Origin: an uncultured Acidobacteriota bacterium
GTDB taxonomy: Bacteria; Acidobacteriota; UBA6911
DNA: 64,000 nucleotides
Assembly (NCBI GenBank): GCA_963809485.1
Contig: CAWEJX010000008.1
Location: 512,001 to 576,000 of the forward strand
Direction: 5' to 3'
In this document: in pieces, positions 5,198-31,547 of the stretch
Layout of the letters: each line of letters begins with the position of its first letter
Numbering within the stretch: the first letter of the stretch is position 1
The notes under the pieces: model-generated
What the model was told of the DNA's origin: nothing
The model's database searches: none
The model's input: only the letters and a program-made list of their open reading frames with translations
Made by a program: the position numbers and the translations under genes

Positions 5198-5343
5198 CCC
5201 GGGTCAGCATTCGGGATTTCAGTGGGCGTCCCTCGGCGTAGGTCGGCGTTACGAAAGTAAATGCCATCCCTTCCAATTCCCGCTATGATAGGCGGCAACC
5301 GGCCTGCGCCGGCTCACAAATCCATAAATAAGGGGAAAATAGC

Positions 5344-5919
5344 ATGCGGAAAACAACCTTTGTCGCATTGAGCTTTATCGCAGCTTTGCTTCTGACATTT
5401 ATTATTGGCTGCACGCCTCCGGCCACCGAAACGGCCAAAACCCCCGAGGCCAAGCCTTCCAGCTATGCCGAGGACCGCGCCCTCATTGAAGACCTGCAGG
5501 CGCGCTATATGTTTGCTCTGGACTTCCATGATGTCGATAGCTACCTGGCCACCTTCACCGAAGACGGCATACTCGACATCGGCACAGGCGAGATCAAGGG
5601 GCACGAAGCAATCCGCAAAATCATCTCCGGGATGCCTGCCAGCCAGGCGCCCAAGGAAGATCCCAAGCTATATCCCGCCACCGGACGCCACAACATCACC
5701 AACATCGTCATCAAAGTCGACGGCGACAAAGCCTCGGGAGTCGCCTACTGGTTCCACTACGGGAACAATAATCCAAAACGGACGGCCCAGTTTGATTCCT
5801 ATGGCCACTATGTGGACGAGTTGGCCAAAGTGAACGGCAAATGGCTATTCACCAAGAGACGCATTTACAATGAGCAGGTTGCCGAATGGATTGCGCCCAA
5901 AGCCAATCCATCTTGGTAA
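5344..5919 (+). CDS. SnoaL/NTF2-like domain lipoprotein
   Basis: Lipobox-like IIGC, EDRALIEDLQARY, FTEDG, GHYVDELAKVNGKWLF. Confidence 0.85.
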   Translation: MRKTTFVALSFIAALLLTFIIGCTPPATETAKTPEAKPSSYAEDRALIEDLQARYMFALDFHDVDSYLATFTEDGILDIGTGEIKGHEAIRKIISGMPASQAPKEDPKLYPATGRHNITNIVIKVDGDKASGVAYWFHYGNNNPKRTAQFDSYGHYVDELAKVNGKWLFTKRRIYNEQVAEWIAPKANPSW

Positions 5920-5958
5920 CGCTGACTCACGCTGACAAGAGCGCGGACGAAGGCTGAC
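5916..5958 (-). repeat. 10-nt periodic TCRGCGT element (reverse orientation)
   Basis: GGTAACGCTGACTCACGCTGA... is the reverse complement of the elements at 17604 and 24905; overlaps the SnoaL stop codon. Confidence 0.75.
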
Positions 5959-6238
5959 ATTCTTTCATTCAAAGAAGGACAGCTATGAGTCGCCTGAATC
6001 CTGGAAATCAGGGATCGACAAGCCCTTAAGAATGCCCGATTGCCCTCCCTTGGGCCCTAAGCTTTCGCATTGCCCCGGTCATAATCCGTGCCGCCCGCGG
6101 ATGCTATTTTTGCACCCCTCCGGATGGCTTTGGTCATTCTGTGGGAAACGCGGAAAAATGGCGTTCGTATATTGCACTTAGGAGTTCCAAGTTGGACGAA
6201 ATTGTGTATGCTTACAGAGCTTAAAAGGAGGAGGGTTT

Positions 6239-6619
6239 ATGAAATATTGTGCACTTACACTTGTGGCGGGATTGTTGTTTGTAACGGGGATGGCTTTTGG
6301 CGCTGACATCGACGGAAAATGGGTAGGCGAAATCGACGGCATGGACGGCAACAAAATGCAGATTTCCTACACGTTCAAGGCCGAGGGGGCGACACTGACG
6401 GGCACAACCGCGGCTCCTGGCCCGGAGGGCGGCCAGAAGCCGATACCTATCAAGGACGGCAAGATCGACGGTAATAACATTTCTTTTTCCGTCACGATTG
6501 ATTTCGGCGGACAAGAGATGAAGATGGAATACAAAGGCGTCCTTTCCGGCGACACCCTCAAGTTGACGATGGATATGATGGGACAGCCGATGGACTTCAT
6601 GCTCAAGAGAGCCAAGTAG
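6239..6619 (+). CDS. Secreted beta-rich hypothetical protein
   Basis: AGGAGG RBS, signal peptide ending AFG-ADIDGKW. Confidence 0.8.
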   Translation: MKYCALTLVAGLLFVTGMAFGADIDGKWVGEIDGMDGNKMQISYTFKAEGATLTGTTAAPGPEGGQKPIPIKDGKIDGNNISFSVTIDFGGQEMKMEYKGVLSGDTLKLTMDMMGQPMDFMLKRAK

Positions 6620-6656
6620 GCAGAATTTTGATGCAGGCGGCTGATTCCGGGCGGTG

Positions 6657-6704
6657 AGGATAGGCTTTGGGCCTCAGGTCTTCGAGGCCCGGTAGCCTAA
6701 TCCT
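6657..6704. terminator. Hairpin between convergent genes
   Basis: AGGATAGGCT..GGGCCTC / GAGGCCC..AGCCTAATCCT. Confidence 0.55.
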
Positions 6705-6726
6705 GTTGCGCCTGCCCGCACTTTGC

Positions 6727-8427
6727 CTACGAGGTCCAGGGTTTTTCTGCAGCGGCATTCTCGCCTGCAATGCAGCCGAATGCGATAGCTTCGGCTATGT
6801 TGCTGCCCCCCGGATACATCAGGCCGAAAAATGAGCCGAGTTCGCCGGCGCTGTACAGTCTCGGAATTGGCTTGTCTTCTTTATCCAAAGTCTGAGCCAT
6901 GCTGTTGTGTTTAGGTCCTCCCTGAGTGTTGGTAACGGTGAGCCCCAGTTCGGCTGCGTAGTAGGGAGGAGTTTTTACCGGAAGAAGATTGCGACGGCCA
7001 AACTCGGGATCCTTCCCGGCTGCGCAATAGTTATTGTATGCGGCAGCCGTTTTTTCCAGCTCCGCCGCATCGATTCCCATCCTGGCGCCTAATTCTTTGA
7101 GGTTATCCGCTTTCAAAATCCAACCTTTTTCAATCTCCGCCTGGTTGTCTTCGCTCCATTCGACCAACTTGTGGATCCCATTCCAACCCATTGTCCTCTT
7201 CGGTGCCAGAGGGCCTTTCCGCCGGTGAGCCTCATCAAAGACGACATAGAAAGGCGCGTTCGGATATTCAGCGTTCTGATGGTCAAAACGCGTGAGCGCC
7301 AAAGTATCCTTTGTATGGGGCAGGGCTTTAGTATCATCCATGAATCTCTTTCCATATTTGTTCACAATGATGAAATTGCCTTGCGCGCCACCTAGCGCAA
7401 GGAGACCGGTATGAACTGAGACTCCGCATTGTTCGCTGGGTATCTTTACACATACAGAATCCCACTCGAGATTGGCCATGTGCCACAGAGGCGCTCCGAT
7501 TTCCGACACCATTTTTATGCCGTCTCCTGTATTGTAGGGCGTGCCCCACGGATGGATTTTCAAACCCGGGTAGTTGAAGTAGCCCTGCATTTCAAAATTG
7601 GCCGAATAGCCTCCGCAAGCCAATACCACCGCTTTCTTTCCCTTAACATAGATCTTTTTGCCCTTTTGTTCCGCGACCACTCCCAAAATGGCTTTGGTTT
7701 CCGGATCCTGTATCAGCTTGTTAACGCGAGTCTCGTACAACACCGGGATATTTCTTTTTTGTACACACTGCTTGTGCGCCAGAAACAGCTGATTTCCGGT
7801 TCCCATGTGTGGAACTTTCACTTCATCGGAAACGACTGCATATAGGGATGCGGATCTGGATCCCGCAAGACGACTCAGCCCGGTGGCCGGACCCGGCGCG
7901 GGACGGGTTGCCGGCCGTGCGGGTGGCGTCGCACCTGCAGGTGGTCTTGCACCTGCGGGGGGCGCCATGCCCATGCGGATAGGCTCCACGGTGACGCCCG
8001 CCTTTTTCAGCGTCTCTGGAACTTTGGCCATGACCTCGCCCATAGTAGTACACAGGCTATCGGGAACGGTCCCGAAACAGAGTGTGCGGTAGTATTCAAT
8101 CGCCTCCGGCACGTTCGTGGGAATCCGTAGCCCGCCCCCGGAAACGCTGGAGTTACCTCCTGCGAACTCTTCCGGCGCCTTTTCCAATATTAGCGCTTTG
8201 GAGCCGGCATCAGTGCTTGCGATGGCCGCGTTGCAGCCTGCATAGCCCATTCCCACAACCACAACATCGGTTTCATAATCCCATCTTTCGGGAAGCCACG
8301 GCTTTGTTTTAGATAACATCAGGCCCGTACCTGATCCAACCACGAGTCCTGCGACTCCCCCAACGGCTGATCCCTTGAAAAACTGTCTTCGCGTCACTTT
8401 CTTCTCGTCGCTATCGGTTGCGATCAT
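6727..8427 (-). CDS. Tat-exported FAD-binding oxidoreductase (FAD_binding_2; flavocytochrome/3-ketosteroid dehydrogenase-like)
   Basis: TRRQFFK twin-Arg leader, DVVVVGMGYAG, GGNSSVSGG, VVLACGG, NTGDG, PRLYSAGE. Confidence 0.9.
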   Translation of the reverse strand: MIATDSDEKKVTRRQFFKGSAVGGVAGLVVGSGTGLMLSKTKPWLPERWDYETDVVVVGMGYAGCNAAIASTDAGSKALILEKAPEEFAGGNSSVSGGGLRIPTNVPEAIEYYRTLCFGTVPDSLCTTMGEVMAKVPETLKKAGVTVEPIRMGMAPPAGARPPAGATPPARPATRPAPGPATGLSRLAGSRSASLYAVVSDEVKVPHMGTGNQLFLAHKQCVQKRNIPVLYETRVNKLIQDPETKAILGVVAEQKGKKIYVKGKKAVVLACGGYSANFEMQGYFNYPGLKIHPWGTPYNTGDGIKMVSEIGAPLWHMANLEWDSVCVKIPSEQCGVSVHTGLLALGGAQGNFIIVNKYGKRFMDDTKALPHTKDTLALTRFDHQNAEYPNAPFYVVFDEAHRRKGPLAPKRTMGWNGIHKLVEWSEDNQAEIEKGWILKADNLKELGARMGIDAAELEKTAAAYNNYCAAGKDPEFGRRNLLPVKTPPYYAAELGLTVTNTQGGPKHNSMAQTLDKEDKPIPRLYSAGELGSFFGLMYPGGSNIAEAIAFGCIAGENAAAEKPWTS

Positions 8428-8574
8428 GATGTCCTCCTTGTCGGGTTAATAAAATGTAGGATTGCACCCCTCCCTCTCTCAGATCCGATAAAAGCAAAGA
8501 TTTGTCGCATCTTAACACGAAACATAAATTGATTGTCTGATTTTGAAAATACTATGCCGTCCTCAGTCGATCAT

Positions 8575-9071
8575 GGGCCAGGGGCAGCGATCTCTATCAT
8601 CTTGTGGGGCACCTTACGGAACACGCCTGGGCGGCTCCGAACCTCGAGCTTCTGAATGCTGCTTTGGAACAAACGAGTTGGGATGGGCCCCGCCTAACAA
8701 AAGCCGTTTGGCGGAAACAGCTAAGGAATCGAGTCAGGCATCTCCTGCAAAGCCGGAGGCTTGAATGACTGGAACTGCTCAAAGCGGTTGGAGGAGTTAC
8801 GCCGGTCTTGAACGCTGACTTACGCCGACCCTCGCCGAACAAATCGGCGTTTGTCAGCGTATCTCAGCGTTTCAAAATACGGAGCTGTCAAACTCTATGA
8901 GTCCCCCGGCAGAGCCTTTTCGAGTCACGCCGCCGTAGACGGCGGTTTGCCTTAAGGCGAATCGATTCCCTTGACTGGGAGAAAGCCCGAGCTGATGTTA
9001 AACCGTTCCTGGAACGCGATCGGGACCTGGATTTAGTGTAGAACGACGTCCTTATCGGTCTCCTGAAATGA
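8575..9071 (+). pseudogene. C-terminal remnant of an AbiEii-type nucleotidyltransferase toxin, interrupted
   Basis: Manual translation: ..GSDLYHLV..APNLELLNAALEQTSWDGPRLTKAVWRKQLR [insert] RIDSLDWEKARADVKPFLERDRDLDLV*. Confidence 0.6.
8733..8916 (-). mobile_element. Non-autonomous IS200/IS605-like mini-element, copy 1
   Basis: Reverse complement of 11760-11983; end hairpins and TGAC-type end; left hairpin truncated. Confidence 0.7.
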
Positions 9072-9203
9072 TTTGGCTCTCATTTTCCTCTCCGCATTTG
9101 TACCGTCCCCGATGGCCACTCTCCCAATATTCTTCAAATCGGCCGTTACAATGGCGGAACGGCGGGCAAACTCCTTCCGTGCTCTCCGGCCCCCCTGCTA
9201 TCG

Positions 9204-9779
9204 CTATGCCTTGGGCTCCTTCGGCGGCTGCCCTATTCGGGAATAGGTACTTGTCAGCATGATCTCCAGGAAAATGAAAGGCTTATTGATTTTGGTGATC
9301 GTGATCGGGCCATGACTCAGAGCCTTAGCTACTGATATGACGGTAGGTACGTTAATGATATGCTTTTCCTGTTCCTCGCCGAGGCAGACTTCAATTTCCG
9401 CGTCAAATTCCCGGCAGTTCATAGGATCGGTACTAAGGAAACCCAGGACCTGTCCGAAATCGTGTGCGTGCGCCGGCCCGGGAACGACAAATCCCGGCTT
9501 GTAGAACACCTGGTGAATCATGATGCAATCAGCCATGAGCTGTTGGGAATTCACTGAGATAGATTCCATTTGAGCGCGCTTCACGTAGGGTTCTTTGATT
9601 ACGTATTTTCCGTACTTGCCGCTATCCGTATAGCCTGCGGGTGGTTGGCTTTTGGGAACCGGACTGCTTCCGGGCTGCTGAAAAGCCGCCTCCAGATTGA
9701 CCGGAGGAATAACGATTCCAGCTGCGGGGAGAATAAGTCCTGACTGCAGAAATGCCCTGCGCGATGATCTGTTTTTCAT
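9204..9779 (-). CDS. Cupin-like protein with twin-Arg leader
   Basis: AGGAGG RBS, SRRAFLQ, HAHDFGQVLGF...GEEQEKH...LSHGP. Confidence 0.75.
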   Translation of the reverse strand: MKNRSSRRAFLQSGLILPAAGIVIPPVNLEAAFQQPGSSPVPKSQPPAGYTDSGKYGKYVIKEPYVKRAQMESISVNSQQLMADCIMIHQVFYKPGFVVPGPAHAHDFGQVLGFLSTDPMNCREFDAEIEVCLGEEQEKHIINVPTVISVAKALSHGPITITKINKPFIFLEIMLTSTYSRIGQPPKEPKA

Positions 9780-10072
9780 AATACCTCCTGTTTTCGAGCT
9801 GTCACAAAGAACGCTGGCTTCTGACTTCCGCATGCGATTTGGGGCGGGAGATCCAGGGCGCAGCCCTTACCTGGGTGTTTATCCGAAACTCAACACCCAG
9901 CAACCATTGAGAGGGCAGCCACAGGACACTCGCCCTTACAGCATTGTCCCTTCCAGATTCAGCAATCGGGTGGCCTCCACGATTGAGGGCTGCTTCTTTT
10001 GTACCTCCGTCATTGCGCCGACACAAGATAAATCGTTGGCGGATGGTGGGATGTGATAGCCCTCCGCATAAT

Positions 10073-10396
10073 TCAACGAATCTGTGCAGCGCGCCGCGTC
10101 CAAGCGAGAATAGCTTCTCGAAGCGCCGCATGCAGACTCAATCCCTTTTCCTTAGCCCGTTCTTCCAACAATGCCCAAATAGCTGGAGGGAAACGAACCG
10201 ACCGTGGAACCGTTCCGCCGGTTTCAAGCACTTTCTTCGGACGCCCCCGTCCAACTTGAACCGTAATTCCTTCAGCTGAGATCCGTTTCGCGTAGGGATT
10301 TGGCCGCACATGAGCTTTTGAGAAATCAATCTCAGGCATTGCTTGAAGCGATGCCTTTGATGGCTCTCTTTGATGTTTTTTAGCTGCCTTCTTCAT
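10073..10396 (-). CDS. BrnA/CopG-like antitoxin
   Basis: MPEIDFSKA..NPYA, GRGRP, RSVRFP ribbon-helix-helix; overlaps brnT stop. Confidence 0.75.
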   Translation of the reverse strand: MKKAAKKHQREPSKASLQAMPEIDFSKAHVRPNPYAKRISAEGITVQVGRGRPKKVLETGGTVPRSVRFPPAIWALLEERAKEKGLSLHAALREAILAWTRRAAQIR

Positions 10397-10649
10397 ATTG
10401 TTTCCTTTCATGGGCTGTGGCGCGACGAGCGCTAATAATTCGGATATCATGACCGTCAATCTCTATGAAAACAACCAGGAGCACCCGTTGTTTGATGGAC
10501 TCGCCGATCAATATTGCGCGGTCGCTGTGAATATCATCTGTTACCATCAGCGCTAATGGATCCCAAAAGACTGTAACCGCTTCTTCGAAGGCGATGCAAT
10601 GTTTGCGCAAGTTAGCGATGGCCTTGTTCGGATCCCATGTAAAATGCAT
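10380..10649 (-). CDS. brnT: BrnT family toxin (DUF497)
   Basis: FTWDPNKAIANLRKH.IAFEEA..VF.DP, IRIISARRAT..ER..Y. Confidence 0.92.
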   Translation of the reverse strand: MHFTWDPNKAIANLRKHCIAFEEAVTVFWDPLALMVTDDIHSDRAILIGESIKQRVLLVVFIEIDGHDIRIISARRATAHERKQYEEGS

Positions 10650-10742
10650 GAATTAAGTGTAATACACTAATGGATTATTTTTCAAGCGTGGAAGGTAGAC
10701 TCAGTATCATCGGCTTTATTGACAATCCTAAGGGAGGTTAAA

Positions 10743-10820
10743 TGGTACGCCTGGCAGGGTTCGAACCTGCGACCTTCGGTTCCGGAGACCGACGCTCTAG
10801 TCCAGCTGAGCTACAGGCGC
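10743..10820 (-). tRNA. tRNA-Arg(CCG)
   Basis: GCGCCTG acceptor stem, TAGCTCAGCTGGA D-arm, TCGGT-ctCCGga-ACCGA anticodon arm, GGTTCGAA T-loop, encoded CCA. Confidence 0.97.
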
Positions 10821-10879
10821 ACTTTCAGACTGCTTATAATTACACGGCTACTTGCCTTCTTGCAAGCCGCCTGAAATAA

Positions 10880-10938
10880 AAAACGCCACGGACATCACGG
10901 ATTAAAAAATGTATAATCCGTTCAATCCGTGGCGTTTT
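10880..10938. repeat. AAAACGCCACGG palindrome, copy 2
   Basis: AAAACGCCACGGA / TCCGTGGCGTTTT with inner CGGATTA / TAATCCG; lies between divergent genes. Confidence 0.85.
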
Positions 10939-10958
10939 GCTTATGGGGAGGAGTATTT

Positions 10959-11552
10959 ATGGAAAACAGCAGCCGAAGGAAATTCGTTAAAGACATTACG
11001 GCAATGGCCGCTGTCGGCGCATTGTCCTGCCTGGAAACAGCCCGGCCGGCCGAAAAAGGAAACACTGAAGCGATGGTCGCGCCGTGCGGGCTTTATTGCG
11101 GAGCCTGCCCCATGTACCTTGCGACGCGGGACAACGACCAGCAGAGAATCGATGCCATGCTGAAAATGTTCAACGAGAGGGATCCGAAGCTGACCATGGC
11201 CGACGTGAAATGCGACGGCTGCATCGCCGGGGGCCGCGTCGCCTGGTATTGCCGGCAGTGCGGCATGCGTGAGTGCGCCGAAAGCAAACCGAATGTCACC
11301 CGCTGCCCCGATTGTTCCGAATTTCCCTGTTCCAAAGTCACCAATTTCAACAACGACGGCATGCTGCACCATGCAGAGGTGCTGGAAAATTGCCGCCGCC
11401 TGCGGCAGGTTGGAATCAAGGAGTGGGCGAAACTCGAGGCGGAAAGATGGAGCTGCCCTAAGTGCCACGCGAGCATCGCCTGGTACGACGCTTCCTGCCC
11501 AAAGTGCAGCGCGCCGCGCTCCGAGCGCCTTTTCGCCCTAAAAAAGGCCTAG
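10959..11552 (+). CDS. DUF3795 Cys-rich protein with twin-Arg leader
   Basis: GGAGGAG RBS, SRRKFVK, APCGLYCGACP, CDGC, CPDCSEFPC, C-terminal CPKC..CPKC. Confidence 0.88.
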   Translation: MENSSRRKFVKDITAMAAVGALSCLETARPAEKGNTEAMVAPCGLYCGACPMYLATRDNDQQRIDAMLKMFNERDPKLTMADVKCDGCIAGGRVAWYCRQCGMRECAESKPNVTRCPDCSEFPCSKVTNFNNDGMLHHAEVLENCRRLRQVGIKEWAKLEAERWSCPKCHASIAWYDASCPKCSAPRSERLFALKKA

Positions 11553-11553
11553 C

Positions 11554-11572
11554 CAGGGGGCTTCGCCCCCTG
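11554..11572 (+). terminator. Short hairpin after the DUF3795 gene
   Basis: CAGGGGG-cttcg-CCCCCTG; weak U-tract. Confidence 0.45.
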
Positions 11573-11660
11573 ATATCCCCCCGCGCGCGACACCCGATGG
11601 AATTCGAAGCCATCAAAACGCTCTCTGGGTATTGGAAGCCAATGGTCAGAGTAAATTTTT

Positions 11661-11744: not shown

Positions 11745-11984
11745 ATTACATTGGAAAAACCCCCGGCTCTGCCGGGGGACTCAGAGAGTTTGACAGCTCC
11801 GTATTTTGAAACGCTGACGTACGCTGACATGACGCCGACGTACGCTGAAAAAATATATAAATTTTTTTCGGCGTGGGTTGGCGTCCGTTCAGCGTGCGTC
11901 GGCGATCAAGACCGGCGTAACTAGTCCAACCGCTTTGAGCGGTTCAAATCTTTCAAGCCTCCGGCTTTGCCGGAGGCACCTGAT
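11745..11984 (+). mobile_element. Non-autonomous IS200/IS605-like mini-element, copy 2 (both ends present)
   Basis: Left hairpin CCCCCGGC-tct-GCCGGGGG, internal ACGCYGA / TCRGCG inverted arrays, AACCGCTTTGAGCGGTT, right hairpin GCCTCCGGC-ttt-GCCGGAGGC; no transposase ORF. Confidence 0.75.
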
Positions 11985-15544: not shown

Positions 15545-15675
15545 GCTACATCACATTGGTAAATCCCCGGCTCTGCCGGGAGACCCAAAGAGTTTGACAG
15601 TTCCGTATTTTGAAACGCTGAGAAACGCTGATAAAAGCGCTGACAAACGCCGATTTGTTCGGCGAGGGTCGGCGA
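15545..15675 (+). mobile_element. Mini-element copy 3 (left end and core only)
   Basis: CCCCGGCTCTGCCGGGAGAC..AGAGTTTGACAGTTCCGTATTTTGAAACGCTGA; core matches copy 1. Confidence 0.72.
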
Positions 15676-16046
15676 GCAAAAGCCGATGAGGCGCTTCCGA
15701 TGGCGTTTTCCTTTTCACCCGCAGCAGGATCGAGGCCTCGCATTTTGGACATCACATCCAGGCGCATACGTTCCGCACCCGGAGCCATACACCGAAAATG
15801 GACGGCATGACCGCGCTGGAGATAGCTCGCGTCGAATGGAGGGACTCCGATTGGCTCAGCCTTCAGGTCTGCCAGGGCCTTTTGCAGACAGGCCAGGTTT
15901 CGTGGATCGGCCAGGATCGCCAGATCGATGTCGCGGCTAAATTCGGCTACGCCGTATAATACGCATGCCTGGCCTCCCATAAGGAGGGCATATACCCGGT
16001 GCCTTCGGATCGAAGAAAGGACTTTGCGTATCGGATTCGGGATCAA
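15676..16046 (-). pseudogene. Truncated nucleotidyltransferase (TA-like pair with upstream small gene)
   Basis: LLMGGQACVLYG..FSRDIDL NTase signature; internally deleted, and the ORF tail reads into the mini-element. Confidence 0.7.
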
Positions 16047-17512: not shown

Positions 17513-17580
17513 AAAGGCGGGGAACGCCGTCCCGGCGCCGCTTTCGGCCCTTGGCCGCGAGCTTTGGACAGTAGATCTGA

Positions 17581-17671
17581 TCGGATTAACGAATCCAATA
17601 AATAATTCAGCGTTCGTCGGCGTTTCCCTCAGCGTGAGTCAGCGTTACCAAAGCTGATGAATCCCTGGATG
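17581..17671 (+). repeat. ~90-bp direct repeat A (TCRGCGT periodic core)
   Basis: 17604-17647 is identical over 44 bp to 24905-24948; flanks similar. Confidence 0.9.
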
Positions 17672-18586: not shown

Positions 18587-21500
18587 CTAATGTGTGATGT
18601 ATTCTACATTTAACTTGGGCGCGCTGCTAGGATTCGTATCGAAGGGGATTGCTGATCGAAGTCCAGTCCCCGTGATGATGATCGCCAAAGAATTGCCACT
18701 TACCCAACCAGGTCGATTCACAATTTCCTGAATGATCAAAGATATATCGGGAGTTTTCTCTCTGGGACCCGTTTCTCCTTTGGCTGTCCATGCTTCAGGA
18801 GACCAAGGAATGGCTGTTGAAGTCCTTGTTCTGGAAGATATATTCCTTGCAGGAGAGGCAAAGACAAGTGCGTTATCTGTGTTTTGACCCTCAATTATGA
18901 GAGATGTAACCGCAGAGGCTTTTCCTACTGCACTGAATTGTATATAGGCATTGACGATCGTTGCTCCAGTGGGAATATTCACGCCGTTGAACCGAATGCC
19001 TATGGTTTGGTTACCCGTTGCCTTCTGAACCATTTCAAGATCTGTGCTTGTGAGATTCATTACCCCACTATAACTCTCTTCTGCGTCATCTGCGCGGGCT
19101 GCAACAGGTATGAGCAAGACTCGGACATCAGGTGCATTGATTGCAAAAGTCTGGGCATTCGAGGTCCCCCCTCCCGGGACAGGATTGAATACGGTTACGC
19201 TCGCGGTCTCTGCGCTGGCGATGTCCGAGGCAGAGACCGAGGCCGTCAGCTGCGTCCCACTTACATAGGTCGTCGCCCGGTCTGCTCCATTCCAGCGCAC
19301 TACGGAACTCGAGATGAAGCTGCTGCCGTTGACGGTGAGAGCAAAGGCCGGACCGCCGGCTGTGGCCGAAGCGGGGCTCAGGCTCGTCGTTGCGGGCACC
19401 GGATTGTCGGCAGCAGTTGATCGTGAAGGTCTGCGCGTTCGAGGTTCCGCCGCCCGGGACAGGATTGAATACGGTCACACTCGCCGCTCCCAACACCGGC
19501 TATGTCAGAGGCCAGGATCGAGGCCGTAAGCTGCGTCGCATTCACATAGGCCGTCGTCCGGTCCGCTCCATTCCAGCGCACTATCGAACCGGAGATGAAA
19601 TTCGCTGCCGTTAACCGTAATCGTAAAGGCTGGACCGCCAGCCGTGGCCGAAGCGGGGCTCAGGCTCGTCGTTGCGGGCACCGGATTGTCGAAAGCGTTG
19701 ATCGTGAAGGTCTGCGCGTTCGAGGTCCCGCCTCCCGGGGCAGGATTGAATACGGTCACACTCGCCGTTCCCGCACCGGCTATGTCAGAGGCCGGGATCG
19801 AGGCCGTAAGCTGCGTCGCATTCACATAGGCCGTCACCCGGTCCGCTCCATTCCAGCGCACTATCGAACTCGAGATGAAGTTGCTGCCGTTAATTGTGAG
19901 AGTAAAAGCCGGACCCCCAGCTGTGGCCGAAGCGGGGCTCAGGCTCGTCGTTGTCGGGCACCGGATTGTCGGCAGCGTTGAGCGTGAAGGTCTGCGCGTT
20001 CGAGGTTCCGCCGCCCGGGACAGGATTGAATACGGTCACATTCGCCGTTCCCGTGCCGGCTATATCAGAGGCCGGGATCGAGGCCGTAAGCTGCGTCGCA
20101 TTCACATAGGCCGTCACCCGGTCCGCCCCATTCCAGCGCACTATAGAACTCGAGATGAAGTTGCTGCCGTTAATGGTGAGAGTAAAATCTGGGCCGCCGG
20201 CTGTGGCCGAAGCGGGGCTCAGGCTCGTCGTTGCGGGCACTGGATTGTCAGCAGTGTTGATCGTGAAGGTCTGCGCGTTCGAAGTCCCGCCTCCCGGCGT
20301 GGGATTAAAGACTGTCACGCTCGCGGTCCCTGAATTGGCTATGTCAGAGGCAGAGATCGAGGCCGTCAGCTGCGTCGCACTTAAATAGGTCGTAGCCCGG
20401 TCCGCCCCGTTCCAGCGCACTATAGAACTCGAGCTGAAGCTGCTGCCGTTAACGGTAAGAGTAAAATCAGGGCCGCCGGCTGTGGCCGAAGCGGGGCTCA
20501 GGCTCGTCGTCGCGGGCACTGGATTGTCGGCAGCGTTGATCGTGAAGGTCTGTGCGTTCGAAGTCCCGCCTCCCGGCGTGGGATTAAAGACTGTCACGCT
20601 CGCGGTCCCTGAATTGGCTATGTCAGAGGCAGAGATCGAGGCCGTCAGCTGCGTCGCACTCACTAGGTCGTCACCCGGTCCGCTCCGTTCCAGCGCACTA
20701 CAGAACTCGAGATGAAGCTGCTGCCGTTAACGGTGAGAGTAAAAGTCAGACCGCCGGCTGTGGCCGAAGCGGGACTCAGGCTCGTCGTCGCGGGCACCGG
20801 ATTGTCGGCAGCGCTGATCGTAAAGGTCTGCGCGTTCGAGGTCCCCCCTCCCGGCGCGGGATTAAAGACGGTCACGCTCGCAGTCCCTGCACTGGCGATG
20901 TCCGAGGCAGAGATCGAGGCCGTCAGCTGCGTCGCACTCAAATAGGTCGTCGCCCGGTCCGCTCCGTTCCAGCGCACTACAGAACTCGAGGTGAAGCTGC
21001 TGCCGTCGACGGTGAGAGTAAAAGCCAGACCGCCGGCTGTGGCCGAAGCGGGACTCAGACTCGTCGTCGCAGGCACCGGATTGTCGGCAGCGTTGATCGT
21101 GAAGGTCTGTGCGTTCGAAGTCCCGCCTCCCGGGACAGGACTGAATACCGTCACACTCGCGGTCCCTGCACTGGCTATGTCCGAGGCTGGGATCGAGGCC
21201 GTCAGCTGCGTCGCACTCAAACAGGTCGTCGCCCGGTCCGCTCCGTTCCAGCGCACCATGGAAACGGACACAAAACTCGCACCATTAACCGTAAGCGTGA
21301 AGCCTGATCCGCCGGCTGTGGCCGAAGCGGGACTCAGGTTCGTCGTTTCCGGCACCGGATTGTCGGCGGCGTTGATCGTAAAGGTCTGCGCGTTCGAGGT
21401 TCCCCCTCCTGGAGCAGGACTGAATACGGTCACACTCGCGGTCCCTGCTACTTCTATATCCGAAGCCAGGATCACTGCGGTTAATTGCGTCGAAGAATCA

Positions 21501-22918
21501 ACTGTCGTAACTCTATCCGCCCGGTTCCAGCGTACTATTGAGCCAGATACAAAGCCGGTGCCATTAACCACAAGATTGAATGTCGCGTCCCTTGCTGTTG
21601 CCGCTGCGGGACTCAGGCTCGTCGTTGCAGGCACCGGATTGTCGGCAGCGTCGATCATGAATGTCTGTGCGCTTGAGGTCCCGCCTCCCGGGGCAGGATT
21701 AAATACGGTCACATTCGCTGTCCCTGAATTGGCTATGTCAGCTGCAGGAATAGAGGCTGTAAGCTGCGTTGGACTCAAATAGGTCGTTGCCCGGTCCGCT
21801 CCGTTCCATCGAACTACAGAGCTCAAGATGAAGTTGCTGCCGTTGACGGTGAGAGTAAAAGCCGGACCTCCGGCCCTGGCCGAAGCGGGGTTTAGGCTTG
21901 TAGCTGAAGGCATCGGATTGTCGAGCGGGGGAAACGAAATTTCATATAACTTGCCATCATTCTCCAAGGGATTTTGGCCGTTATCAACACCGCGAGCCAC
22001 AATGTAGAGATTCTTCTGTGTGGGATTTTTGCTCGCCGGAGCATAAACCATGCCGCCGCCTGCACCCAATGACACCACGCGGGAAGCATCGATATAGCGG
22101 AGAAGCGTCCCATCAATCGTTGTCTCGGCAATTTTTCTTTTATAGCTCATGACGTATAAGTGACCATTTTCCGAATTGAACGCGATGCCTTCCGGGTCCA
22201 ATATTCCAAGGGCACTCGTATCAAAGTGCGTAACGACATCATCTCCAGCGGGTGGTATTCCGTCGAACACACCATTGAGACCTGGCGAGATGTCATAAAC
22301 TTCGGTGCCCTCACCGTCGGCAATGAGCAAATGACCTCTCGAAGCATCGAAAGTGATATCCTCCGGATCATCACTTCCAAAAGACCTGGTGCTAAAATAC
22401 GTAACAACATCATCTGCCGTGTTGTAGGCTGCATCCTGCCCCGGATTTAGAATGAATACTCTCCCCCAATTGTCGTCCGCAAAAAATAGAAACCTGCTCA
22501 CCGGATCGAAGCTGACGCCCGTCGGCTCATGCGAAAAGGGTATCGTTGTAAGAGTGCCAACCAGCTGACCTGATAATGTCACATCAAACAGGTTGACGCC
22601 CGCAAAGTATGGCGGCATTTCATCAACTTCACTGTCGCATATCAACAGCCTATCGGAATCGGGGATGTAGGTCAGGCCAGCCGGATCAGGGCTTGGTGGG
22701 GAAAAAGCCGAAGTCTCAATGATGCGTTCCAATGTTGCTTGAACAACGGGAGTCTGTGCAGAAACAGGAAGGGCTAATAGGGAACCGTGCATTAGAAATA
22801 TCAAGAGTAAATTCTGGATTATTTTGTTTTTTCTTAAAAACCTGTGATGAGACAAGGCGTCCTCCTGTCTGGCTTGTTTTTTTCGCTCGCTTCCCACGTC
22901 TTCAAGCAGTTTTTGCAT
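18587..22918 (-). CDS. Large secreted protein: SdiA-regulated-like propeller, 10 IPT/TIG repeats, C-terminal carbohydrate-binding-like domain (about 1,440 aa, split by about 5 single-base indels)
   Basis: DPEDIT/DPEGIA repeats; DNPVP units every 279 nt; C-terminal DDAEE..GIRF.GVNIP.GATI.NAYIQF; four ORF fragments join. Confidence 0.85.
19135..21922 (-). repeat. Ten 279-bp coding tandem repeats (93 aa IPT/TIG)
   Basis: GGATTGTC anchor near 19401, 19683, 19963, 20242, 20521, 20799, 21078, 21357, 21636, 21915. Confidence 0.92.
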
Positions 22919-24349: not shown

Positions 24350-24860
24350 GATCTCAAAGCCGGGGCTAAGCGCATGGGATTCGGCCTTGCGCAGAATTGC
24401 ACCTTGGCCCATGGCAGGCACAACGAGCTAATCGCCGATGGCAAGCCCTCCCATGGCCGGCCACCTCGCGAAGGCAGGATATCTGCTCGCAACACACGAT
24501 ATCGACCGCGCAAAAGCAAATGCCCAAGCGGCGCAACTGGTCTTCATGGTGGGCGGAGAAAAGGAGCCCGTCAACAGGGTGATGCCGCTGCTCGAGCTCA
24601 TGGGGAAGAAGGCATTCCACCTCGGTCCCATAGGAGCTGGGCATGCCATGAAATGCATAAATAACCTAATCACGGCGATCACGTTTATGGCGACCACAGA
24701 AGGTTTGATCGTGGGTAAGGAATTCGGCCTTGATCCGGATGTAATGACCGACGTGCTGAGCGTCTCCACCGGAATGCCCTGGATCAGCCAGACTCAATTC
24801 AAACAGCGCATCATGATCAGGAAATTCGACGATCCCTTCCGGCTCGAGCAAATGACCCAA
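24350..24860 (+). pseudogene. 3-hydroxyisobutyrate/6-phosphogluconate dehydrogenase-family fragment
   Basis: PMAGHLAKAGY, LVFMVGG, GPIGAGHAMKCINN; middle missing and 3' end cut at repeat B. Confidence 0.8.
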
Positions 24861-24881
24861 ACGGAAATAACCTCGGTCCCA

Positions 24882-24972
24882 TCGGATCAACGACCCCTAG
24901 AAAAAATTCAGCGTTCGTCGGCGTTTCCCTCAGCGTGAGTCAGCGTTATCAAAGCTGAGGAATTCCCGATGA
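24882..24972 (+). repeat. ~90-bp direct repeat B
   Basis: Matches 17581-17671. Confidence 0.9.
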
Positions 24973-25080
24973 ATTAGCTTTCAATAAATTCGTGAGAATT
25001 CATTGCCTTTGTTGTTCTATACTACCGCCAGCCATCGCATCGAAATATCTGAGGCTCTGGAATTTATAGGAGATTTGACC

Positions 25081-27543
25081 TTGCCAGAAAAATACCGGCC
25101 GTGGACCTGGAAGATACCCGAGGGCAGTTCCGAAGCAAAACGCAGCATGACGCGCCAGGATGGTTTCGAGCGCGTCAGCGGAACCGCGGTCTACACCAGG
25201 GACATCCATCTTCCAGGGATGCTCTATGCGAAGACCTACACGTCTCCCTACGCTCATGCCAAAATCCTAAGCATGGACACAAGCGCCGCCCGGGCGCTGG
25301 AGGGCGTGCGCGACATCCTCCGCTTTGACGATCCCGAAGTCGTGGAGGAGAATGTTACCGGAACCGACGCCCACTACAACATCCTCACCCTGCCCGGCAT
25401 CAGCGACTTTTATCAGCATCCCATGGGCATGGTGGTCGTGGCGGACAGCGAAGAGATATGCGACCAGGCGCTGAAGCTCATAAAAATTGAATGGGAAGAG
25501 CGGCCGTTCGTCCTGGATTTCGAGGAAGCCCTGAAGCCGGACGCTCCAAAAATCTGGAGCGAGGTGGAGCGCCTCAGGCGTACGGCCAAAGAGCCCAACA
25601 CCATTATTACGGAAAGCGTCGAAATCGGGGATGTCGAAAAAGGCTTCGCCGAGGCAGACAAGATCATCGAATACAAGATAACGAGGGCTACAAATTCGAC
25701 CGCGGGCGTCGAAGCCATGGCCTGCGTGGCGCAATGGCGAGGGGAGTTCCTGGATCTCTGGGTGCATCATCAATATAACCAGGTGCCCTATATCACCAGC
25801 GAAACCAATCCTCAGATGCAGTTCGACGGGGATGATATGGATTTTCCCGCCCAGATGCCGAGCAATTTCGGCCGCATGCCCAGCAAAAGAAAACGTCTGC
25901 CTCCGCTCGTTCACTGGTCCAAACTGACGCTGACCTATCCCTTCCAGGGATCCTGGTTTGGAGGGGTGACATGGCTGGCATATTCCGCGGGATTTATCCG
26001 GCTGGCCGTCATCCTGGCCAGGAGGGCGGGCGGCAGGCCGGTGAAGATGCTTTACGACGAAAGCCAGTTTTACATCAACGGCGACGAAGCCGGCACCTAC
26101 ACGTGTAAAATCGGCGCAAAAAAGGACGGGACGGTCACTGCCTACGACTGGCACACGGTGGGGATGAGAAATCCCGGCATCGACAAAACACCCGAATGCA
26201 CAAAAATACACAACATACGGGGCCGGGAGTCCTGGGCGTTCACTAATCAGGGCCACCATCAGTGTTACAGGCATGGGGCTGCAGCGTGCATTCCTCACAA
26301 TTTGATGTTCGCCCGCGTGGCGGCCGAATTCGGGCTCGATCCCACAGAGGTTGCGCTGAAGAACGACGGCTGCGGCGGCCATTCTTGGGATTGGGTCACC
26401 GAATACCAGAAGGAAAATGGTTTTCCGCAAAGGCACAGTCTTAAAGAGGTGATCGATCTCGGCAAAAAGGCCATCGGCTGGGATGAAAAGTGGCATCCTC
26501 CCGGGGCGCGGAAACTCCCCAACGGTAGAATGCACGGGCTGGGATTCATGTCCATCCACGAATGGCAGGTGGGCATCTTTTCCGGGCCTGCGCCGCCGCT
26601 GGCCTGCCTTATATTACGCGATGGTAAGGTCGCGATTATCGCGACACGCTGCGATATGGGAATCGATTCGGAATCCGGATACCGCATGTGCGTAGCTTCC
26701 GAATCGGGAATGAAGTACGAAGATACTGTTATACAGGTGCGCCGCTCCGATAATAACGCCTATGTCTTTCCAGGTCCCGGCGGCTCCTTCGGCACAACAG
26801 GCACGACGCCTCAACTCGTGCTGGCCGCCCGGGAACTGAAACGAAAAATCCTCCAGTATGCCGTAATGCCGAGATCGACAATGAAGGGTCCCGGGGAGCC
26901 CTTCTTCGCCGGCAGGAAGCTTGAGGATCTCGACATCCGGGATAGTTATATATTCGAGAAGGCAAATCCGGAAAACAGGAAATCTGTTACAGAGGTAGCC
27001 AATCCATTCTGGAATGCCGACCCGGCAATCGTCCATCCTGCAGCGGGTTCATTGGGGGAATTGAAGTCGGAGGGCAAGCCGGATGGCCAGCTTCACTTTA
27101 TGGCCAGGCAGGCCCACTTCGTGGAGGTGGAGGTGGACACGGAGACCGGCCTGGTGGATGTAACCAATATGGTGTGCGTCAACGACGTGGGACATGTGTT
27201 CAATCCACAGGGCGCCATGGGCCAGCAGTACGGGGGCGCAATTATGGGCCTGGGCAGGTCCGCAACCGAGGAGAAGGTCTACTGTCCGAGGACCGGCGTC
27301 GGACTGAACTGGGATCATATAGGATATGCTTTGCCGAGCATGAGCGACTATCCGCCCGTCGAGTGCATCCTCAACGAGAGCCATCTGGGATATTCCACCT
27401 ACGGAGCATGCGGAATCGGCGAGAACGTCGGCGCGAGTGTTTCGGCCATCACGTCCCCTGCCCTATACAACGCAACAGGCAAATGGATCCTAGACTTCCC
27501 CATCACGCCCGAAAAAGTCCTTAAGGCCCTTGGAAAAATATAA
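25081..27543 (+). CDS. Xanthine dehydrogenase-family molybdopterin-binding subunit
   Basis: RQDGFERVSGTAVY..D..LPGMLY..SPYAHAKI, GPGGS, FVEVEVDTETG, GIGE, PITPEKVL; likely TTG start after AGGAG. Confidence 0.92.
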   Translation: MPEKYRPWTWKIPEGSSEAKRSMTRQDGFERVSGTAVYTRDIHLPGMLYAKTYTSPYAHAKILSMDTSAARALEGVRDILRFDDPEVVEENVTGTDAHYNILTLPGISDFYQHPMGMVVVADSEEICDQALKLIKIEWEERPFVLDFEEALKPDAPKIWSEVERLRRTAKEPNTIITESVEIGDVEKGFAEADKIIEYKITRATNSTAGVEAMACVAQWRGEFLDLWVHHQYNQVPYITSETNPQMQFDGDDMDFPAQMPSNFGRMPSKRKRLPPLVHWSKLTLTYPFQGSWFGGVTWLAYSAGFIRLAVILARRAGGRPVKMLYDESQFYINGDEAGTYTCKIGAKKDGTVTAYDWHTVGMRNPGIDKTPECTKIHNIRGRESWAFTNQGHHQCYRHGAAACIPHNLMFARVAAEFGLDPTEVALKNDGCGGHSWDWVTEYQKENGFPQRHSLKEVIDLGKKAIGWDEKWHPPGARKLPNGRMHGLGFMSIHEWQVGIFSGPAPPLACLILRDGKVAIIATRCDMGIDSESGYRMCVASESGMKYEDTVIQVRRSDNNAYVFPGPGGSFGTTGTTPQLVLAARELKRKILQYAVMPRSTMKGPGEPFFAGRKLEDLDIRDSYIFEKANPENRKSVTEVANPFWNADPAIVHPAAGSLGELKSEGKPDGQLHFMARQAHFVEVEVDTETGLVDVTNMVCVNDVGHVFNPQGAMGQQYGGAIMGLGRSATEEKVYCPRTGVGLNWDHIGYALPSMSDYPPVECILNESHLGYSTYGACGIGENVGASVSAITSPALYNATGKWILDFPITPEKVLKALGKI

Positions 27544-27559
27544 GCGATCCGTTTTTGAT

Positions 27560-27582
27560 AGGGGCGGTCTGCAGACCGCCCG
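27560..27582. repeat. GTAG-type REP-like hairpin or terminator
   Basis: GGGCGGTCT-gc-AGACCGCCC. Confidence 0.55.
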
Positions 27583-27680
27583 TCAGGCAATAACCAGATT
27601 ACGCCTTTCGAGCTGCTCTGTAGAGCCATCCTCACCCAATCAACACTAACTGCGCGAAAATCGTATTTTTTAATATTTTT

Positions 27681-27720
27681 TCAGCGTGCGTCAGCGTTTA
27701 TCGGCGTGCGTCAGCGTTAA
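27681..27720 (+). repeat. Four exact 10-nt-period units
   Basis: tcagcgtgcg/tcagcgttta/tcggcgtgcg/tcagcgttaa; 38/40 identical to 30223-30262. Confidence 0.9.
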
Positions 27721-27765
27721 GATCTATAAACGGGCATCCCAAATCTGGCAAATGGAGGCGTGGGG

Positions 27766-29735
27766 ATGATGATTGAAAAGACATTGGCCAAGATTGTCGG
27801 ATCGGGCAACGTCATCCGTAATCAGGCGGCGCTGGATGATTATCTTGCCATCAGGGATTCCCTGCCCGCCTGGGTGCTTTTCTACAACCTCGCGGCCTAT
27901 GAATATCTGCCGGAGGAAAGAATCAGCGGCCAGGTTCAGGATGCAATAGATCTTGCGCAACGGATAGGAGTAGATCAGGTAAAAGCGATAGGCAAAACAT
28001 CATGCGCAGGAGACCGTGAGGCGCCGAGCAAGGTCGTGCGGATACGAGGCTGCCAAGAACTCTGACCCGCACTGGAGCCGACAGGAGGTGCGTCACAATA
28101 TTCGAGGCAATACGCGTGGGGCTGGAGCGATCGTCTGCGGATTTGCAGGCATGATAGGCTCAGCCCTTGCATCGAAATACGGGATGCCATGAGCCGCCGG
28201 AGGACTTAAGCTCTGGTGCCCGTTCATCATAGAACGTTCCACTGATTCATTTGTGTTGGACGTCGAAGTCGTCGGGAGCCTGCCGGATGAGGCAACGATG
28301 CCCAAATGGTTGTTCTGGCTGTAACTTGCCTGAGCGTATGGCAATCAAAATGCATCCATCCATCGACGCTCTTCTTCCTCATCCGGTTCATGCATAGAAT
28401 CGTTCTCGGCATTTGCATTCTTGAGAGATTCGGTAATGGGCAGTCGGATTCTTCAGCCATATCGAATACCCAAGCTAGCGGATTTATAAGTGTCTTCTGA
28501 ATTTCAGAAAAGCTTCCTGCGTGGCTATTCTGAGGAGGGCGTTATGGGACTTGCGGATTATCGGAGGGAGATGGAGCTTTGCCACGCTGTTCAGCCTGCA
28601 AATTCATGCCCCTGGAGAAAGTCGAGAAATTCGAGCACGTAAACGTCTGCCCCAGCATTTCCAGATACAATTTTCACGCCTAATCAGGCGGCGGACGCAT
28701 GGTTTTCGGCGTGGCGATGCTGGAGAACCGGATCGACTATTCGGACAAGCTGCTCGAAATTGTCTACAACTGCCAGATGTGCGGCGCCTGCGACGTCTCC
28801 TGCAAGTATTCCCTGGACATGGAGGTGCTGGAGCCGCTCAATGCAATGCGGATTCAATGTGTGGAAGACGGCCACACATTCCTCCCCTTGACGCCACTGT
28901 CAACAGCCTGCGGAAGCAAGGCTCGATGGTTCCTGGCCCGAAAGCCAAGAAAAGCCAATGGGCCGATGGACTGAAGGTTAAGGACACCACAAAACAGAAG
29001 GCCAAAGTGCTTTATCACACTGGCTGCCGGACCAATTATGATAGGGATATGTGGCCGGCGGCCCAAGCCGCTGTTTCGCTGCTCCAGAAGGCGGGCGTTG
29101 ACCCTGGAATCCGCGGGGACAGCGAACTCTGCTGCGGCGGCCGCGCCTACCAGATGGGATACCAGGCGGATTTCCTCAAAACAGCCCAAAAGAACATCGA
29201 GCTGATGGGCTTCAACGTCGCCATGATGGCAGCCAACGTCTCAACCAGCAATGAAGAGGCCGTGAACATATTCAGACGTTCACCGACTCCGTTCAGGGAC
29301 CGGGATTGATGCTCATGATCGCGGGGACATCTGCAAGGGACTTTGAATATAAAAAGAAGGTGCTGTAGAAGATCATGGAGGAAACCGGCGCGTGGTCTCT
29401 GAAACCGGTTGAGGATCCTGAACTGGGCGCGGATTTTTGTGGCGGTTTATCCGGACGGTGGGATCGATTCGGGAGACTGCGCGAGCTTCGGGAACTGTAG
29501 CCCCCGTGGTTGGAGGCACGGATATCTTCCCCTTGATGACGCGGTATATCCTCGATAACTTCCGACGTCAAGCAAGACTTGATCAAGAAAGGCCTGTCGC
29601 TGGATGAAAGCGTCTATCCGTTCATCCAGTCATTGAGCATGGACATACGGGCACGGAGAAATACTTGTCGGTATGCTCCTCAAGTCCGGATTCAATACCC
29701 GACGTGCCTGGGACGCGATGCGCGAGGCCAACAGG
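27766..29735 (+). pseudogene. Decayed FAD-oxidoreductase / Fe-S (CCG-domain) oxidoreductase operon
   Basis: LAKIVGSGNV; from 28544 MGLADY..C..CSAC..CPS..YNFHA*SGGGR..CQMCGACDVSC, YHTGC, ELCCG; stops, frameshifts and large deletions. Confidence 0.75.
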
Positions 29736-29807
29736 AGAAACAGCCATGAGTTCCATCAACAGAGCGGATAGAGACGCAACTCGAAGGCATTCATCTTCGA
29801 ATTTTCC

Positions 29808-30143
29808 ATGGGCGCCGCCAGGCTGGCTGAAGGCTCGATTATGGTGAACTGCTCCTGGGTATGGGCGGGAGAGGATCCGGGCAGGATGGATGCTCATGCG
29901 CATCCCTATGCGGAGGTCATAGGATTTGCGGGGGGCGATCCCAGGCAGGCGGATGATCTTGGTGCGGAAGCCGAGATGTGGATGGATGACGAGAAGTATA
30001 TTCTGGATAAAAGCTTCCTGGTCTTTATCCCTCAGGGGCTAAAACACTGCCCCTTGATTCTCCGGAACATCAGGAAGGACATCTTTCATTTTGACATCCA
30101 GGTCACGCAAGGCGAATTCCGCGCCGTGCCGTTTAAAAAATAA
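29808..30143 (+). CDS. Cupin-like protein, paralog of 9204-9779 (5' end possibly frameshifted from ATG 29746)
   Basis: HAHPYAEVIGF.G.DP...LGAE.E...EKY......FIPQGLKHCP. Confidence 0.65.
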   Translation: MGAARLAEGSIMVNCSWVWAGEDPGRMDAHAHPYAEVIGFAGGDPRQADDLGAEAEMWMDDEKYILDKSFLVFIPQGLKHCPLILRNIRKDIFHFDIQVTQGEFRAVPFKK

Positions 30144-30166
30144 GGTGGAACGTGGAACGTGGAACG
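30144..30166. repeat. (GTGGAAC)x3 heptamer repeat
   Basis: Same unit as 501-528; starts immediately after a stop codon. Confidence 0.7.
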
Positions 30167-30222
30167 GACGATTTTGGCTTCCTATAGCCCATTTCCCTGC
30201 CGATATGAATATTTGCAGTTTT

Positions 30223-30262
30223 TCAGCGTACGTCAGCGTTTATCGGCGTACGTCAGCGTTAA
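30223..30262 (+). repeat. Four exact 10-nt-period units
   Basis: tcagcgtacg/tcagcgttta/tcggcgtacg/tcagcgttaa. Confidence 0.9.
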
Positions 30263-31544: not shown

Positions 31545-31547
31545 CGA

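Follow-up and report, generated by a model that had tools for sequence, protein, structure and literature searches.

Helically phased heptamer arrays in an Acidobacteriota genome as candidate arms of a family of small selfish elements found across phyla

The 64,000-nucleotide stretch analyzed here (the window; positions 512,001 to 576,000 of contig CAWEJX010000008.1, assembly GCA_963809485.1, from an uncultured Acidobacteriota bacterium of the UBA6911 lineage) carries between about 5 and 30 kb a patchwork of small, mutually unrelated genes, fragments of genes, and the remains of an IS66 element, with many junctions occupied by arrays of a seven-nucleotide word, TCRGCGT, repeated at about one helical turn. 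These heptamer arrays, and the family of small, putatively mobile elements to which they probably belong, are the subject of this report.

Heptamer arrays and their repeat units in the window

The exact word TCRGCGT occurs 53 times in the window, compared with 17.6 +/- 4.2 times in dinucleotide-preserving shuffles (largest value 34, with none of 100 reaching 53). When words with no more than one mismatch are chained at a spacing of 9 to 12 nt, and an arm is taken to be at least three units or at least two exact units, 11 arms are recovered, all within 5223-30259; 30 first-order Markov shuffles give a mean of 0.07 arms and a maximum of 1. A twelfth arm, of two units (TCGGCGA GGG TCGGCGA), lies at 15659-15675, so that there are 12 arms over nine loci, the same nine loci named in the original prediction. 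As was also claimed there, the polysaccharide half is free of arrays, and the same chaining finds no arm in 32-64 kb, which is an ordinary polysaccharide-synthesis cluster.

The grammar of the arrays agrees closely with that first description. A period of 10 nt, occasionally 11, had been proposed, and the units are mostly spaced by 10 nt and at times by 11, with some spacings of 12 as well (e.g., 17617 to 17629). Most arrays had been said to end in GCGTT(A), and by reading of the arm listing 9 of the 12 arms end in GCGTT and 6 of the 12 in GCGTTA. The outermost unit (ending in TCAGCGTT, with or without a further A) is the best conserved in every arm, and the inner units are decayed; the degeneracy reported at 5204-5252 is evident, and the inner half of 5916-5958 is degenerate too. 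Read in some frames, the arrays contain the stop codons TGA and TAA, and copies occur in both orientations. Six of the 12 arms have no partner, and three loci (8810-8872, 11810-11905, and 15613-15675) consist of two inverted arms back to back with conserved flanks of about 50 to 80 nt. Three sub-families of longer repeat units, here called types a, b, and c, hold the window arrays. These units, with left and right ends abbreviated LE and RE, and the solo arms are as follows.

5204-5252, plus strand: solo forward arm, with good units at 5223-5249 (TGGGCGT, TCGGCGT, and TCGGCGT followed by TAC) and degenerate units upstream.
5916-5958, minus strand: solo reverse arm of two exact and two degenerate units.
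8734-8916, minus strand: type-a copy 1, with RE hairpins, palindrome arms at 8812-8838 and 8844-8870, and LE with a truncated hairpin.
11748-11983, plus strand: type-a copy 2, complete, with LE at 11748-11810 after TTAC, palindrome at 11811-11905, and RE at 11906-11983.
15552-15675, plus strand: type-a copy 3, with LE after TCAC and a palindrome of four reverse and two forward units; RE (flank Y) is missing.
17580-17665, plus strand: type-b copy 1, 86 nt, one-armed, with four forward units.
24881-24966, plus strand: type-b copy 2, 90% identical to copy 1 over 86 nt.
27639-27727, plus strand: type-c copy 1, with one degenerate reverse unit, an AT-rich spacer, and four forward units ending in GCGTTAA.
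30210-30274, plus strand: type-c copy 2, 150 nt upstream of a NarL/FixJ-type response regulator gene (30414-31091).

A type-a unit has a reverse arm (three to four ACGCYGA units), a short AT-rich center, and a forward arm (two to four TCRGCGT units), with one conserved sequence, flank X, on one side and another, flank Y, on the other. In copy 2 the palindrome is built of four plus four units about its center, and RE contains two GC hairpins. Plasmid matches by blastn are confined to the two outermost 45-nt segments of the unit. Flank X corresponds to the stretch that precedes an annotated IS200/IS605 tnpA gene by about 60 nt on a Leptolyngbya plasmid (L097 among the collected loci) and, likewise, a truncated open reading frame (ORF), Y1-like by eye, on a Solidesulfovibrio plasmid (L098). 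Flank Y corresponds to the right end: its two hairpins recur 3' of the Leptolyngbya tnpA and also in L096 and L099. The LE alignment has 32 invariant columns out of 77, and pairing in the hairpin survives a G-C to A-T substitution that is compensatory; the copy 2 hairpins fold with z scores of -3.6 (LE) and -4.6 (RE). The four bases preceding LE are TTAC in three of six full copies, and TCAC, TTCC, and TTCT in the other three. Insertion 3' of TTAC is the behavior of IS608 and is typical of the IS200/IS605 family.

The interior of type-a units is a 59- to 96-nt heptamer palindrome with no transposase gene inside, and the units have no terminal inverted repeats. Besides the three copies in the window there are five with the LE core, in L001 (two), L073, L076, and L055, all from one Acidobacteriota metagenome-assembled genome (MAG) in which the unit recurs at 80-92% identity in unrelated flanks. 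Because LE and RE are homologous to ends that bracket tnpA, three of the nine loci (8734-8916, 11748-11983, and 15552-15675) are, as judged from sequence homology, tnpA-less and hence non-autonomous miniatures of IS200/IS605 type with ends related to those of Y1 tnpA elements: they have LE and RE with subterminal GC hairpins, contain no transposase, and are multicopy in different flanks. These three loci could spread by the known single-strand Y1-transposase route. Heptamers are absent from the interiors of the autonomous relatives L097 and L098, and the palindrome is therefore taken to be an entity separate from the IS200/IS605 element. The lead toward RAYT proteins given in the original prediction survives in part; RAYTs belong to the IS200/IS605 transposase family and three loci lie within miniatures of this type, but there is no RAYT or Y1 gene in the window. 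We note that two inverted miniatures bracket a 3-kb segment holding a tRNA gene (10746-10820, minus strand; Rfam, 67 bits), a BrnT toxin gene with a ribbon-helix-helix neighbor, and a DUF3795 gene; the tRNA is the only match in the window to Rfam 15 at the gathering score.

The remaining units are simpler. The stretch at 5913-5964, which includes the solo reverse arm (itself about 80% complementary to type-b units), is a more diverged inverted relative of type b. The type-c arrays at 27677-27720 and 30219-30262 are 95% identical. One Acidobacteria MAG has a unit (L049) that matches type-c copy 1 at 87% identity, and type c recurs in two Acidobacteria MAGs. Neither type-b nor type-c units have a blastn match among plasmids. 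A candidate ORF start at a conserved AAATTTATGG beside the type-c units was rejected, the frames being only 5 to 20 codons long. The regulator gene at 30414-31091 (plus strand), directly downstream of the last array, encodes a receiver and a GerE domain, with no sensor kinase seen adjoining it.

The coincidence of arrays with truncated genes, also part of the original prediction, is evident at three ORFs that are truncated or read through next to arrays. The IS66 transposase frame is 5' truncated, starting at Pfam position 124 of 284, no more than about 40 nt from the right edge of type-b copy 1. A degraded 3-hydroxyisobutyrate-dehydrogenase-like ORF (24432-24935) has a family match that stops at position 74 of 122; the similarity gives out about 25 nt short of type-b copy 2, into which the frame then reads. 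A nucleotidyltransferase-like ORF (15546-16046, minus strand) ends in array-coded residues at type-a copy 3, where RE is missing; it has no Pfam match and by eye shows what we take to be the GG...DIDL motif of the minimal nucleotidyltransferase type. The positions of these array-abutting ORFs would fit insertion into, or deletion next to, the genes concerned. At the SnoaL_4 gene (5344-5919), the outer end of the solo forward arm points at the gene, and the TAA stop lies within GGTAACGCTGA, the first unit of the solo reverse arm. A tblastx comparison of window positions 1-32000 with all collected loci finds the repeat unit and one unrelated ORF in common, and nothing else.

Armed elements and the GxxExxY gene in other genomes

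When 185,579 species genomes are scanned for AACGCTGA-N3-ACGCYGA-N3-5-ACGCYGA, at least 87 loci are found, from Acidobacteriota, Chloroflexota, Cyanobacteria, Planctomycetota, Patescibacteria (the candidate phyla radiation, CPR), Elusimicrobia, Omnitrophota, Actinomycetota, and others. By our own count, two inverted arms lie within 45 nt of each other in 24 of the 87 matches listed. In two Anaerolineae MAGs, L027, L079, and about ten more loci share a unit of about 85 nt that ends in TCAGCGTGTATCAGCGTTAATCAGCGTT; each genome has many copies, some of them head to tail, in what is a lineage-specific expansion of a one-armed miniature.

Four of the 87 listed loci (L032, L044, L063, and L072) have a GxxExxY gene exactly between the reverse and forward arms. 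This family (PF13366 PDDEXK_3, TIGR04256) is classed with the PD-(D/E)XK nucleases, and by ORF clustering and Pfam scans of the sampled loci it is the sole protein family that recurs inside arms. Clustering by blastp of the 1,347 ORFs around the 87 listed loci gives larger clusters composed of ordinary host genes, and Pfam scans of 135, 45, and 24 small ORFs inside or beside arms find no 23S_rRNA_IVP, DUF559, or Y1 transposase. The window arms share word and spacing with L032, L063, and L072 and with the left arm of L044, and all 12 are of the AC[GA]CNGA / TCNG[CT]GT form at about 10 nt that, in inverted arrays, characterizes the GxxExxY armed element.

An independent set, selected by protein, comprises the eight plasmid records found by tblastn with GxxExxY. 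In four of these, inverted heptamers of AC[AG]CNGA type adjoin the gene (L090, L091, and L093, with a single pair in L092). The original prediction spoke of inverted arms around small nuclease-like or four-helix-bundle genes; the nuclease part is borne out by GxxExxY in the four listed loci and in about half of the eight plasmids, and neither four-helix-bundle nor DUF559 cargo was detected by Pfam between arms in the sampled small ORFs. In plasmid records the GxxExxY gene is wedged among housekeeping genes (e.g., fabD and fabG). In a 50-kb region surrounding the gene on a Bernardetia plasmid there is no four-helix-bundle gene and there are no exact arrays.

The GxxExxY family is large, with at least 7,994 relatives at E <= 1e-8 among 8,000 scored candidates. 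Twenty-five aligned members, sharing 39-94% identity, all keep the motifs D..ExK and G..E..Y, and 23 of 45 longer proteins containing PF13366 combine it with unrelated host domains. An ESM Atlas search returns GxxExxY clusters only and no model, and one published account gives the function as unknown (PMC3424549). Many members start MNADERRW or MNTDEHRW, and a possible back-translation of such a start, ATG AAC GCA GAT GAA CGC AGA TGG, contains two ACGCAGA units 10 nt apart, which suggests that the left arm may often overlap the start of the gene. Six-frame searches with a single member and with a 25-sequence profile find no GxxExxY gene in the window, and the window copies are therefore at most non-autonomous derivatives. 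The enzyme had been expected to lie outside the window, in agreement with the finding of no GxxExxY gene, Y1 transposase, or other candidate within it.

Several copies are located inside conserved genes. Gene-less two-armed copies are present in frame in NifJ (L003 and L075), LeuRS (L021, twice), GyrA (L064), and an RsmI-like methylase (L007), and in L072 a whole element, including the nuclease gene, is in frame within the GTPase domain of LepA; other copies are inside 16S (L039 and L070) and 23S (L069) rRNA genes. By reading, the left arms of coding copies use ACGC[A/G]GA, and they thus avoid the TGA that ACGCTGA would put in every third unit. For NifJ, 18 relatives were collected, 6 without the anchor motif were dropped, and 12 were aligned with L003; the segment is present in 5 of the 13 rows and missing from 8. 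One close relative lacking the segment (89% identical over the query region) has matching flanks, and the segment is thus a presence/absence difference between relatives. Two of these genes contain further domains as well. The LeuRS frame of L021 (ORF 842-4027, minus strand, in a CPR-like MAG) has in-frame alpha/beta-hydrolase and NUDIX domains in addition to two heptamer mini-elements, and the GyrA of L064 (ORF 3-2315, in a Saccharibacteria MAG) has in its N-terminal part an intein-splicing-domain remnant in addition to its mini-element, placing two kinds of selfish insert in one essential gene.

Interpretation and alternative explanations

On balance, and with moderate confidence, we read the window arrays as arms of gene-less miniatures belonging to a family of small selfish elements that is shared across phyla, with phased protein-binding arms and an enzyme encoded outside the window. 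The full element would have a left arm of three to six ACGCNGA units, a small GxxExxY nuclease gene, and a right arm of three to five TCNGCGT units, the units lying about one helical turn apart and the outermost being the best conserved. The phased heptamers are predicted to be binding sites, such that a protein would coat one face of the DNA at each end; the likeliest binder is the nuclease of the element itself, which would be provided from another site in the genome, and the arms would form the two ends of the element. Beyond the three type-a loci, the other six window loci would be solo or lopsided miniatures. Presumably the arrays also end or truncate neighboring reading frames and offer sites for rearrangement. 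Protein binding, this choice of binder, the mobility of solo arms, and a causal role in the truncations are all steps that we infer from sequence patterns.

This reading retains from the original prediction the phased sites of a mobilization-type system, the enzyme encoded elsewhere, and the link to a small nuclease. It does not retain replication iterons. A dispersed, iteron-like family of helically phased sites is indeed present, but a replication function is unlikely, there being no rep or dnaA gene in the 64 kb, nine dispersed loci, and the same arrays in coding and rRNA genes of other phyla. A more far-reaching version is, in our judgment, rather improbable: that these are an undescribed cross-phylum class of mobile element, in which a 125-residue PD-(D/E)XK nuclease assembles on phased 7-mers at both ends and moves the element without a classical transposase, in-frame insertion being tolerated in essential proteins and rRNA, and miniatures hitch-hiking and seeding truncations.

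Several observations weigh against the nuclease-armed family. There is no target-site duplication or other transposition footprint to be seen at the copies. None of the Acidobacteriota loci collected has a GxxExxY gene, and the link between arms and nuclease rests on a shared word and architecture across phyla, without a cognate pair in one genome. The gene-carrying share is just 4 of the 87 matches listed, and the pattern-selected set is mixed, many of the listed loci being plain 10-nt tandem repeats that are possibly unrelated. Among the protein-selected plasmids, two of eight have direct repeats of other words (L088 and L095) and two have nothing obvious (L089 and L094). Sequence and profile searches of the PDB with GxxExxY give no usable solved relative (best E, 0.09). 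Finally, the two-armed cores fold strongly as single strands when G-T pairs are allowed (z scores of -9.5 for 11748-11983 and -7.4 for 8734-8916), and two-armed copies may have a hairpin or RNA role.

The best-surviving alternative, though still an unlikely one, is that the arms belong to a selfish element recognized by some other protein, either a host factor or another transposase, with GxxExxY as one of several interchangeable passengers. Most copies are gene-less (83 of the 87 listed loci and all nine in the window), the heptamer word is far more conserved across phyla than is the nuclease, and three window copies ride in IS200/IS605 miniatures. A parallel is also offered by a 23S rRNA intervening sequence (IVS), in which tandem heptamers precede a four-helix-bundle ORF, according to one report (PMC4990558). 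Set against these points are the recurrence of GxxExxY alone between arms in the sample and the failure to see any other candidate enzyme beside the arrays.

Action at the RNA level is a less probable alternative, with paired arms forming a long interrupted hairpin that would be cut by RNase III or would stabilize or terminate transcripts, in the manner of rRNA IVSs and REP elements, and with the 10-nt phasing a matter of helix geometry. The strong folding of the two-armed cores is in its favor, as is the location of several window arrays at the 3' ends of genes and of other copies in rRNA genes, where a hairpin extension would be tolerated; in Coxiella, the IVS is reported to be cut out by RNase III at the stem of its terminal inverted repeats (PMC4990558). 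However, the six partnerless window arms are conserved between copies and genomes, yet one-armed units do not fold (z scores of +1.1 for both 17580-17665 and 27639-27727). Six fixed positions of the heptamer are complementary between inverted arms by construction, and the informative positions are the center base and the spacers. The center base is pairable in 35 of 87 unit pairs over the two-armed copies, comprising 21 of 32 in the Acidobacteria type, which is no more than the Y/R make-up predicts, and 14 of 55 in the others; spacer bases are pairable at 80 of 154 positions (about 52%, compared with 37.5% by chance) and are thus weakly complementary. A fixed word between freely varying spacers is the mark of sequence-specific recognition rather than of a stem, and, together with the one-turn phasing and the retention of one-armed copies, fits protein binding better.

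Two further explanations are much weaker. The arrays could be operators for a host transcription factor recognizing direct repeats at one-turn intervals, such as the NarL/FixJ-type regulator whose gene lies 150 nt from the array at 30223-30262, and by reading of the ORF map about 6 of the 12 arms are upstream of a gene in the right orientation; but the remaining arms are at 3' ends or wrongly oriented, the same arrays are found within coding and rRNA genes of unrelated phyla and flanking a nuclease gene, and three window copies are inside IS200/IS605 miniatures, all of which makes such a local regulon very unlikely. Least likely of all is an integron-like system with the arrays as recombination sites and 5-30 kb as a cassette array, since the mosaic structure and its toxin-antitoxin pairs (BrnT and PIN, each with a ribbon-helix-helix neighbor) are offset by the lack of an integrase in the window, by one-armed arrays that are not imperfect palindromes, by array ends such as GTTACCA and GTTATCA that do not fit the attC core consensus GTTRRRY (other ends read GTTAAGA and GTTAAAT), and by composite units that are explained by IS200/IS605 ends.

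Relation to known elements and other repeats of the window

The closest known counterparts of the proposed nuclease-armed family are the rRNA IVSs (S23p / 23S_rRNA_IVP), which are likewise small selfish inserts with inverted repeats and one small ORF or none, tolerated in rRNA genes. The Coxiella 23S IVS has been called a selfish element with terminal inverted repeats, and tandem heptamers (GACAGAT) lie upstream of the four-helix-bundle ORF in a number that varies between strains (PMC4990558). An element with inverted repeats and tandem heptamers is therefore of a kind already known. The elements described here differ in their cargo, which is a PD-(D/E)XK GxxExxY nuclease rather than a four-helix-bundle protein, in their arms, which are phased 7-mers at 10 nt rather than a continuous 28-bp stem, and in their location, with copies also in protein genes and between genes, and with the window copies ORF-less. 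A study of CPR rRNA insertions found 23S_rRNA_IVP ORFs, and the terms repeat, palindrome, and hairpin are absent from the available part of its text (PMC11270868).

Miniatures of IS200/IS605 elements, relatives of REP/RAYT systems, resemble the copies at three window loci in LE and RE hairpins, TTAC-like bases before LE, and multicopy occurrence; they differ in that the interior here is a heptamer palindrome and in that the other six window loci have no such ends. Repetitive extragenic palindromes (REPs) and REPINs are 20- to 40-nt imperfect palindromes with a conserved 5' tetranucleotide, arranged in inverted pairs, with a RAYT gene in the genome, whereas the window arrays are direct 7-mer repeats with non-folding one-armed copies and no Y1/RAYT gene in the window. 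Rickettsia palindromic elements are also short, palindromic, transposase-less selfish repeats in frame in conserved protein and RNA genes. They are known only from Rickettsia, whereas the arrays occur in many phyla and have a candidate for an autonomous form, and the sequences are considered unrelated, although no Rickettsia element sequence was compared. The ends of Mu, Tn7, IS21, and the IS607 family share with the arms the arrangement of several phased inverted binding words at both ends with a distinct outermost unit. Their end sites are about 19 to 22 bp and are bound by DDE or serine transposases; in contrast, the word here is 7 bp, the only associated gene encodes a 125-aa nuclease, and no target duplication is seen.

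In the main texts searched, no paper has the heptamer as a word save for one primer, there are only passing mentions of GxxExxY, PF13366, and TIGR04256, and no description was found of phased arms, nuclease cargo, or miniatures in coding and intergenic positions. If the reading as a nuclease-armed family is correct, two uncharacterized families, the GxxExxY proteins and the rRNA intervening sequences, would gain a function as components of a single type of selfish element whose DNA ends can be recognized. The reading would also explain why conserved proteins and rRNAs of CPR bacteria and cyanobacteria contain short hydrophilic inserts, and annotators would have a simple DNA signature for them. 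The 25-kb patch of fragmented genes would also be accounted for, with one selfish element riding in another, the IS200/IS605 miniature.

The window contains other repeats as well. A second small repeat family, of terminator-like hairpins on AAAAACGCCACGGA / TCCGTGGCGTTTTT, occupies three intergenic sites (4089-4176, 10873-10953, and 31484-31559). Contiguous 7-nt tandem repeats, (ACGTGGA)x4.4, (CTACCTT)x3, and (CAACGTT)x4, are found within 100 nt at 499-595, and the same 7-nt word as there recurs as (GTGGAAC)x3 at 30145-30166, 57 nt upstream of the array at 30223-30262. Two longer tandem repeats are coding: one of 279 nt x 9.9 (84% matches) at 19149-21923, in minus-strand ORFs without a Pfam match, and one of 285 nt x 4 at 33637-34772, in an fn3 / purple-acid-phosphatase-N-like protein.

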